A stretch of 64,000 nt of DNA, taken from the NCBI RefSeq assembly GCF_024223415.1, contig NZ_CP100500.1; one strand, written 5' to 3'. Source of the DNA: Escherichia coli. GTDB lineage: Bacteria > Pseudomonadota > Gammaproteobacteria > Enterobacterales > Enterobacteriaceae. A program made the position numbers and the translations under genes. A model generated the notes under the pieces. It was not told the origin of the DNA. It did no database searches and was given only the letters and a program-made list of their open reading frames with translations. Each line of letters begins with the position of its first letter. Position 1 is the stretch's first letter. Positions 17,346 through 18,433 of this stretch are shown in pieces.

Positions 17346-17801
17346 ATGCTGGATATAATCCTGGCGACGAGAGATATTTATTTTGAAAAAGCCCTGCGAG
17401 AGATATTTGGAACCGTAAGCAGTCGAATCAGATATATAGAAGATGCCATATCAGACAGAAGAAGGGTGCAGTCAGGCAGGTCATTCAGATATTATTTTGT
17501 ATTCTGTGATGATGAGTATACAGATATTGTTCGTATTCTTTTTACCGGAGAGGCCTGCTGTATTCTGAATAAGTCGATGCTGAATCTGAGAGCGGCCGGA
17601 GGTGTGTTGACGCTGGAAGAGCGCAGAGCGGTACTGAACCGGTATTACAGAGGTTTAAGTATTGCGGAGATTACAGAAGAGACGGGGCAGAATGACAAGA
17701 CGGTATACGGTCATCTTCGTCGTGCACTGCAGCGGTCTGGATTCCGGAAGGGGCGTTTTATAAAGGGGAGAGAAGCTGCGGGGGATTCAGGTGTTGAATA
17801 A
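17346..17801 (+). CDS. Putative transcriptional regulator with C-terminal LuxR/GerE- or sigma-70-region-4-like HTH
   Basis: C-terminus LTLEERRAVLNRYYRGLSIAEITEETGQNDKTVYGHLRRAL fits that HTH pattern; N-terminal about 90 aa unassigned. Confidence 0.45.
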   Translation: MLDIILATRDIYFEKALREIFGTVSSRIRYIEDAISDRRRVQSGRSFRYYFVFCDDEYTDIVRILFTGEACCILNKSMLNLRAAGGVLTLEERRAVLNRYYRGLSIAEITEETGQNDKTVYGHLRRALQRSGFRKGRFIKGREAAGDSGVE

Positions 17802-17912
17802 TGTATCTTATATTGTGATATCGGTGCTGCTGCTGTTATTTTTTGTTGTATTTGTGACGAATGGTTAAGAATAAAACATGAGTTGGTGATTATCAGGACA
17901 GGTTGCTTGTAT

Positions 17913-18008
17913 ATGAAGATAACAAAGGCGGCATTTATTTTTGCGCTGTCAGTGTGGAGTGTTGCTGTGATATGTCTTTTATTATTTGTACTGGTTGTTC
18001 TGGGATAG
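17913..18008 (+). CDS. Candidate small hydrophobic peptide (31 aa, MKITKAAFIFALSVWSVAVICLLLFVLVVLG)
   Basis: Short ORF with charged N-terminus and one predicted transmembrane helix in a 380-bp gap; weak RBS. Confidence 0.2.
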   Translation: MKITKAAFIFALSVWSVAVICLLLFVLVVLG

Positions 18009-18184
18009 CTATAGTGGAATTATTATTTTTTTAAGACTATGGTTTATATTTTTATTCGGCAATATTTCTGTAAACAATTAAATATCAGAAAGGCGTGTTG
18101 TATGCGTGAACACGCCTGAGTATGTATACAGAGATTGTTAATTTGGAGAGAATAATTACAGTTGTTATTTATTTGACGTCCTGA

Positions 18185-18433
18185 TTAGTGAAAAAACCAG
18201 TCATCAGCAGTTTCCCAGACTTCCTGCAGCGTTTCCTGTATGAACTTCTGAGCGTTTTCTTTATCTACGGCTCTTAAAATGGTCAGTCCGTCATTACTGG
18301 CGGATTTTACTATAACCTCCACATCGTCATATCGTTTTCTGATACGGCTAGACATTTCCTGTTGTAGAGCAGGTACAGAGCCTTTTGGCATTTTACTGAA
18401 TTTTTCTTTAGCGATACAGATTTCAATACGCAT
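18185..18433 (-). CDS. dinI: DinI-family DNA-damage-inducible protein
   Basis: [51 protein letters not shown] closely parallels E. coli DinI. Confidence 0.8.

Follow-up and report, generated by a model that had tools for sequence, protein, structure and literature searches.

Two short and unusually hydrophobic open reading frames, ORF1 and ORF2, lie at and behind the 3' end of a gene for a sigma-70-region-4-like helix-turn-helix (HTH) protein, here called the regulator, in Escherichia coli; they travel with a mobile adhesin cassette and were intact in the sampled complete genomes. These frames are tentatively interpreted as two genes for small single-pass inner-membrane peptides, which would be co-transcribed with the regulator and would modulate either the regulator or the adhesin of the cassette. 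The pair is better supported than an earlier note on the same DNA had judged it to be. The features discussed are collected in Table 1, with positions counted along the window, that is, the whole stretch of 64,000 nucleotides that was analyzed.

Table 1. Coordinates of the cassette genes, the two hydrophobic frames and the neighboring sites in the window.
Feature	Position	Strand	Remarks
YadA-like trimeric autotransporter adhesin gene, 469 aa	15876-17285	+	Pfam YadA_anchor, E 1.2e-16; first gene of the cassette
Sigma-70-region-4-like HTH protein (regulator), 151 aa	17346-17801	+	Pfam Sigma70_r4_2, E 2.2e-07; TAA stop at 17799-17801
GGGGGA, SD-like site for ORF1	17780-17785	+	Within the 3' end of the regulator gene; G5 run at 17780-17784
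ORF1	17791-17868	+	GTG start; 25 aa, MLNNVSYIVISVLLLLFFVVFVTNG; mean hydropathy 1.96
T6 run in ORF1	17839-17844	+	T7 would join ORF1 to the ORF2 frame
ORF2	17913-18008	+	ATG to TAG; 31 aa, MKITKAAFIFALSVWSVAVICLLLFVLVVLG; hydropathy 2.26
Right-hand homology end, prophage-type versus island-type copies	18009-18020		Shared block ends at 18020 in L002-L011; megablast ends at 18020
Hairpin AGGCGTGTT...AACACGCCT, then TTTCTGATATTT on the minus strand	18092-18118	-	MFE and centroid folds, both strands
LexA-box-like site CTGAGTATGTATACAG	18116-18131		3' of dinI
dinI-like gene, 82 aa	18185-18433	-	Pfam DinI, E 8.6e-19; NCBIfam PRK10597, E 5.2e-19; convergent with the cassette

Two hydrophobic frames behind a regulator gene

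The earlier note had described a 31-codon frame with a short polar N-terminus and one transmembrane-like helix, preceded by a shorter hydrophobic frame. Both were recovered, as ORF2 and ORF1, respectively, and the flanking genes that it had labeled as a regulator and dinI carry the corresponding Pfam domains. ORF1 and ORF2 are each shorter than 50 aa, with a start codon and one predicted transmembrane (TM) helix. In the ORF2 peptide a Lys-rich N-terminus, MKITK, is followed by a single TM helix of about 25 hydrophobic residues, and the ORF1 peptide consists of one TM-like helix preceded by about six residues. The GTG start of ORF1 overlaps the last 11 nt of the regulator gene, in the +1 frame relative to the regulator and ORF2. 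These last two share one reading frame, in which a single TAA stop stands between them and which stays open for 69 codons past that stop, a length reached in 0.28% of dinucleotide shuffles.

Neither peptide matched a family in Pfam, NCBIfam, PHROG or PADLOC; the sole Pfam match, Doppel (E 0.016-0.028), fell below its own cut-off and was spurious. PGAP never annotated the two frames, either in homologous loci or in the sampled genomes, and in the literature that was searched neither the peptides nor the accessions of the regulator were mentioned, the papers on Eib and EibG leaving the genes downstream of the adhesin undescribed. A reading of ORF2 as a lipoprotein or a signal peptide was rejected on visual inspection, since its AVIC does not form a lipobox and cleavage would leave no mature part.

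The length of these frames by itself means nothing, an ATG ORF of at least 31 codons being found in 47% of dinucleotide shuffles of the 383-nt gap between the regulator and dinI (17802-18184). The composition of the frames is another matter. An ORF of this length with a mean Kyte-Doolittle value of at least 2.0 occurred in 0.26% of shuffles, and a pair of hydrophobic ORFs of at least 25 aa each in 0.06%, although the real significance of these values is lower because the hydropathy thresholds were set post hoc, the scan of the earlier note having covered 64 kb. Among the 623 ORFs of 25-70 aa in the six frames of the whole window, three had a hydropathy of at least 1.9; two of them were ORF1 and ORF2, and the third was an out-of-frame ORF within the adhesin gene. 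The region after the regulator is rich in T (41%), which favors hydrophobic codons. In ORF2, T was counted at codon position 2 in 19 of the 31 codons, as opposed to 7 and 11 codons at positions 1 and 3, respectively, a concentration that marks a frame coding, now or in the past, for hydrophobic residues. Hence, the pair is a clear and solid outlier, short of proof.

The signals for translation differed between the two frames. The SD-like site of ORF1 gave a predicted anti-SD duplex of -8.6 kcal/mol at a spacing of 5 nt to the GTG, among the top 3.5% of random positions and stronger than the duplexes of the regulator (-6.9 kcal/mol) and dinI (-6.3 kcal/mol), whereas ORF2 has an interrupted AGGA..AGG (-5.6 kcal/mol, top 19% of random positions) that contains an internal loop and is badly spaced. 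The statement in the earlier note that no strong RBS was present thus holds for ORF2 and fails for ORF1, and ORF1 is the better candidate for translation. Furthermore, the overlap of its start with the regulator stop has the layout typical of putative translational coupling.

No sigma-70-type promoter was detected on the plus strand upstream of ORF1 or ORF2 in a scan of 17200-18600, and no terminator was detectable after ORF2, whether in the prophage or in the island context of the cassette described below. If expressed, the two frames would hence form the tail of the adhesin-regulator transcript. No Rfam family matched within 17800-18185, the fold energy z-scores were unremarkable (-1.13 on the plus strand and +0.57 on the minus strand), and no meaningful repeats were found. 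The hairpin between ORF2 and dinI is probably the terminator of dinI, judging from its minus-strand sequence; on the plus strand it is without a T-run, and it was not called by the strict terminator scan.

The adhesin cassette and its copies

The cassette consists, in this order, of the YadA-like adhesin gene, the regulator gene, ORF1 and ORF2. The adhesin matched the YadA anchor in PDB (2lme, E 1.8e-17) and is named "YadA-like family protein" by PGAP in homologous loci; since the solved EibD passenger was not among its close matches, it is not called Eib here. The regulator, which PGAP names "sigma factor-like helix-turn-helix DNA-binding protein", had no homologue below about 82% identity in a HMMER scan of 1.84e9 representative proteins. 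The only distant relative of its N-terminal part was PHROG 6585, a weak match (E 3e-4) to a profile of 156 positions, and this profile length suggests that about 151 aa is natural for the protein. Its C-terminus is a basic, probably unstructured tail, RSGFRKGRFIKGRE, and a single-sequence AlphaFold model was unusable (pLDDT 37).

In the window the cassette stands at the tail end of a lambdoid prophage, where plus-strand ORFs of 859, 1302 and 601 aa have the same order as the tail genes J, tail fibre and DUF4376 in a near-identical locus (L001). After the tail genes come the adhesin, the HTH gene, ORF1/ORF2 and the convergent dinI, and then the prophage ends. The cassette was also found outside prophages, in IS-rich islands adjoining iuc, yaiO or nanE genes. 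Common to the two contexts was a block at 16514-18020, with 98.5-99.5% identity, that spans the stalk and anchor of the adhesin, the regulator gene and both hydrophobic frames; 247 nt from further upstream (15358-15604) accompany it. The homology ended at 18020 in all comparisons, 12 nt past the ORF2 stop; this boundary is a single recombination junction between the prophage and island types, and so is suggestive only. The prophage type was found in 22 genomes and the island type in about 160. Altogether, the tail of the cassette was present in 183 of the 5426 complete E. coli genomes. It occupied 285 places, up to 6-7 in one genome, and many of the carrier isolates were of poultry origin. ORF1 and ORF2 therefore travel with a mobile cassette. 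Like the lambdoid morons (lom, bor, adhesin genes), it is an autonomous accessory block that lies past the tail-fibre genes and ahead of the prophage end, and it is also found in IS-rich islands; classic morons have their own promoter and terminator, in contrast to the absence of a detectable terminator after ORF2 in either context.

All of the E. coli copies were at least 95% identical, and most at least 98% (blastn, distant mode). No relative of the region was found in phages or plasmids by blastn or tblastn, and neither the regulator nor the tail had a diverged homologue in 5.8e9 word-indexed proteins or in the 1.84e9 proteins scanned with HMMER, where near-identical fragments were the only matches. 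With copies so similar and no diverged homologue, conservation of the frames has no power to demonstrate selection. Within these bounds, no indel in ORF1 or ORF2 was found among 60 complete assemblies sampled from the 183 genomes. The only indel seen in ORF1 was an in-frame CTG deletion in one copy (L003), and in a second copy (L006), from the single strain SFE8, an IS3 element inserted after codon 3 disrupts ORF2. The exact ORF2 peptide and its variants V28I, L30M, I20M and F10L occurred on more than 200 contigs in the protein collection. All four variants exchange one hydrophobic residue for another, as would 54% of the possible non-synonymous changes; against that baseline, 4/4 falls short of significance (p about 0.08) and is, in addition, subject to ascertainment bias.

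Small membrane peptides or a relic

YohP, MgtS/YneM, MgtR, PmrR, AcrZ and MgrB are examples of small inner-membrane proteins from E. coli and Salmonella; such proteins have 25-50 aa, a single TM helix and, before it, a short N-terminal stretch that is polar or basic. They are often missed by automatic annotation and are often encoded beside or within the operon of the protein that they modulate. ORF1 and ORF2 resemble these single-pass proteins in shape and in escaping annotation; they differ in having no similarity to curated families, in being confined to one E. coli-specific cassette and in being known from sequence alone.

The reading favored here, tentatively, is modeled on such proteins. 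The cassette would be read as one plus-strand transcript, and the absence of an own promoter fits ORF1 and ORF2 as the tail of an operon. ORF1 would be translated by coupling to the regulator gene through its GTG overlap and SD-like site, and ORF2, with lower efficiency, from the ATG of its own frame. The two peptides would insert into the inner membrane, ORF2 with the N-terminus inside, a topology that fits a cytoplasmic MKITK end. There, they may act as accessory factors or modulators of the cassette products, not as toxins; they may, for example, keep the HTH protein at the membrane or tune the export of the adhesin.

A reading in which ORF1 and ORF2 are non-functional is nearly as likely. 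The 220 nt after the regulator would then be a decaying remnant of an older membrane-protein coding sequence, or a T-rich 3' UTR that is open by chance, preserved because the cassette copies are recently derived. Copies this similar require no selection to keep their frames intact, the RBS of ORF2 is weak, the two frames have neither annotation, family nor homologue, and the IS3 insertion in ORF2 is tolerated in strain SFE8. The composition of the region, with its high T content, points the same way, and the long open stretch past the single TAA could have been left by a nonsense mutation in a longer ancestral ORF. Nevertheless, the sequence of the tail or of its fusion to the regulator matched no larger protein among the 1.84e9 representatives, so that no parent gene can be identified, and the PHROG 6585 profile, although a weak match, suggests that the regulator naturally ends near its present length. 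A remnant also leaves unexplained two well-formed peptides in two frames, each with a start codon, as well as the strong SD-like site at a 5-nt spacing from the GTG of ORF1. 

Switch, toxin and fusion readings, and implications

A more specific form of the membrane-peptide reading can be drawn from the operons of ECF sigma factors and their anti-sigma factors, in which a gene of the sigma-region-4 type is likewise followed by an overlapping single-pass membrane ORF. An HTH protein composed of region 4 only would be tethered at, and released from, the inner membrane by one or two coupled micro-peptides of 25-31 aa, in a minimal anti-sigma-like switch that would tie adhesin expression to the state of the envelope and that would have arisen recently in E. 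coli. This version is unlikely. Compared with the ECF operons themselves, the HTH protein has region 4 only, the best NCBIfam sigma models giving 15-21 bits against cut-offs of 43-226, and an anti-sigma domain would need far more than the approximately six cytoplasmic residues of ORF1.

The earlier note had proposed that such peptides could be type I toxins or membrane modulators. The second proposal is retained as the best guess; the first, in which ORF1 or ORF2 would be a membrane-depolarizing peptide and an antisense or overlapping small RNA would repress its translation, is very improbable. Ibs, ShoB, TisB, DinQ and Hok/Ldr are likewise short hydrophobic peptides, the first four being similar to the two peptides in both size and hydrophobicity, and the cassette is multi-copy in some genomes. 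Additionally, some of these toxins are under SOS control, and no more than about 110 nt from the ORF2 stop there is a LexA-like box, one of three sites in the window with at most three mismatches from CTGTATATATATACAG (0.08 expected), the other two being the promoter boxes of dinI. This box, however, stands past ORF2 towards dinI, where it cannot control a promoter of ORF2. The only minus-strand promoter-like site, at 17917-17889, would yield an RNA antisense to ORF1, but its match of 9/12 is at or below chance (2 found and 3.2 expected) and it is not accompanied by a terminator, none being called on the minus strand in 17240-18550 by the strict scan. In the sequence, no antisense RNA gene is visible.

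Of the hallmarks of type I toxins that can be tested on sequence, a size below about 60 aa and hydrophobicity were found, and the others were not. Neither frame has an own plus-strand promoter, an Rfam match, a structured leader or any unusual RNA structure, and no membership of Hok/Gef, Ldr, Ibs, TisB, ShoB, DinQ or ZorO was detected in Pfam or NCBIfam, even at E values up to 1, or in PADLOC. The two frames stand at the tail of an operon and not at a stand-alone locus, and their extra copies track the adhesin cassette instead of forming a separate toxin locus.

Finally, the regulator, ORF1 and ORF2 could be one gene, whose product would be a 220-aa membrane-anchored regulator made by two frameshifts (+1 at G5 and -1 at T6, by phase variation or programmed) or by read-through of the TAA. 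The geometry allows it: the regulator and ORF2 share a frame with a single stop between them, the ORF1 frame is entered when one G is lost from G5 and is left towards the ORF2 frame when one T is added to T6, and the basic tail of the regulator resembles a juxtamembrane linker. Indeed, the protein collection holds two proteins, P0006 (220 aa) and P0008 (225 aa), that follow exactly this path. Both are considered sequencing artefacts, since the indels of their assemblies lie in homopolymers of draft sequences. Compared with a complete genome that is nearly identical to it, the assembly behind P0006 shows six indels in 6.6 kb, all of them in homopolymer runs, and the assembly behind P0008 has four indels in 700 nt with fragmented neighboring genes. 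T7 was seen in two draft assemblies only (L008 and L009), the complete genome L012 having T6, and the G run was G4 in L008 as opposed to G5 in L012.

The complete genomes agree with this verdict. The span 17800-17885, and T6 with it, was unchanged in 60 of the 60 that were sampled, and the 151-aa product annotated by PGAP in nearly all of them implies G5. An exact look-up of eight possible ORF1-ORF2 fusion peptides found none in the protein collection. No ToxR-like combination of a DNA-binding domain and a TM segment in one ORF was observed, the regulator stopping at the TAA both in this DNA and in the complete genomes. In E. coli no stop context is stronger than a TAA with T as the next letter, which makes read-through unlikely, and two serial shifts of low efficiency would yield a negligible amount of product. 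Moreover, five positive charges, carried by the loop that joins the helices, would come to lie in the periplasm and would break the positive-inside rule for an anchor with its N-terminus inside. The 220- and 225-aa fusions were therefore rejected as a membrane-anchored or phase-variable regulator, and the one-gene reading has very little chance of being correct.

If ORF1 and ORF2 are untranslated, the finding is an ordinary one. The fusions carry a separate lesson, that "fusion" proteins in large collections can arise purely from homopolymer errors in long-read assemblies. Hydrophobic small ORFs at the tails of operons are invisible to PGAP, and if the two frames are translated, they would add two more unannotated small membrane proteins, of no described family, to those of E. 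coli. Placed beside an orphan regulator, they would also offer a possible handle on the control of the adhesin in a cassette that is enriched in poultry and extra-intestinal isolates of this species.

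Distribution of the cassette and variation of its adhesin

Judged by the presence of 17800-18012, the cassette (the YadA-like adhesin gene, the gene of a sigma-70-region-4-like HTH regulator and the tail of two small hydrophobic ORFs, ORF1 and ORF2) was found in 183 of the 5426 complete E. coli genomes, commonly in multiple copies. Among the hosts listed for these genomes, chicken, turkey, duck and APEC isolates were strikingly frequent. When cassette copies were compared, the sequences of the anchor, the regulator and the tail were near-identical, unlike the passenger head of the adhesin (about 15605-16513), which was not common to these copies. 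The adhesin stalk (16514-16800) includes tandem repeats of approximately 99 nt, the copy number of which varies from strain to strain.

Sites before the regulator and beyond dinI

A perfect GC-rich palindrome, which may act as an operator or fold into an RNA hairpin, is immediately followed by a TATAAT motif and the SD sequence of the regulator. In strain SFE8, whose ORF2 also contains an IS3, this palindrome was the insertion site of IS421, with a duplication of 12 nt.

Three sites with no more than three mismatches to the LexA core were present in the 64 kb, versus 0.08 expected. The third of them shares sequence with the right arm of the probable dinI terminator hairpin, and no promoter was detectable when one was searched for beside it. 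The region 18021-18190 was found in only 22 genomes, with the same dinI present every time. This LexA-like site may be the leftover of an SOS-controlled gene formerly located after dinI, an arrangement like that of the dinI-antirepressor operons of the Gifsy prophages.

Separately, an immunity or antirepressor-like module (18705-19627, - strand) is flanked by dinI and a truncated ompW.

Features of the regulator-dinI-ompW region
Feature	Position	Location	Sequence or score
Perfect GC-rich palindrome	17308-17328	between adhesin stop and regulator start	TCCCGGGGGA-G-TCCCCCGGGA
LexA-box-like site, third in window	18116-18131	3' of dinI	CTGAGTATGTATACAG
dinI promoter boxes	18449-18464 and 18477-18492	remaining two of the three LexA-core matches in window	
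43-nt fragment similar to tmRNA 3' end	18705-18747	- strand module	
ORF6N-domain ORF	18812-19204 or longer	- strand module	
C4 antisense RNA	19426-19510	- strand module	78.9 bits
isrK	19538-19614	- strand module	72.7 bits
c4 a1/b1 target	19575-19627	- strand module	

Chimeric regulator proteins in draft assemblies

In two draft assemblies, GCA_028598215.1 (L008) and GCA_019430965.1 (L009), homopolymer indels gave rise to chimeric proteins, 220-225 aa in length and "sigma factor-like", that have been deposited in NCBI nr (MDC9149451.1). These proteins are an actual example of an assembly error producing a plausible membrane-anchored regulator.
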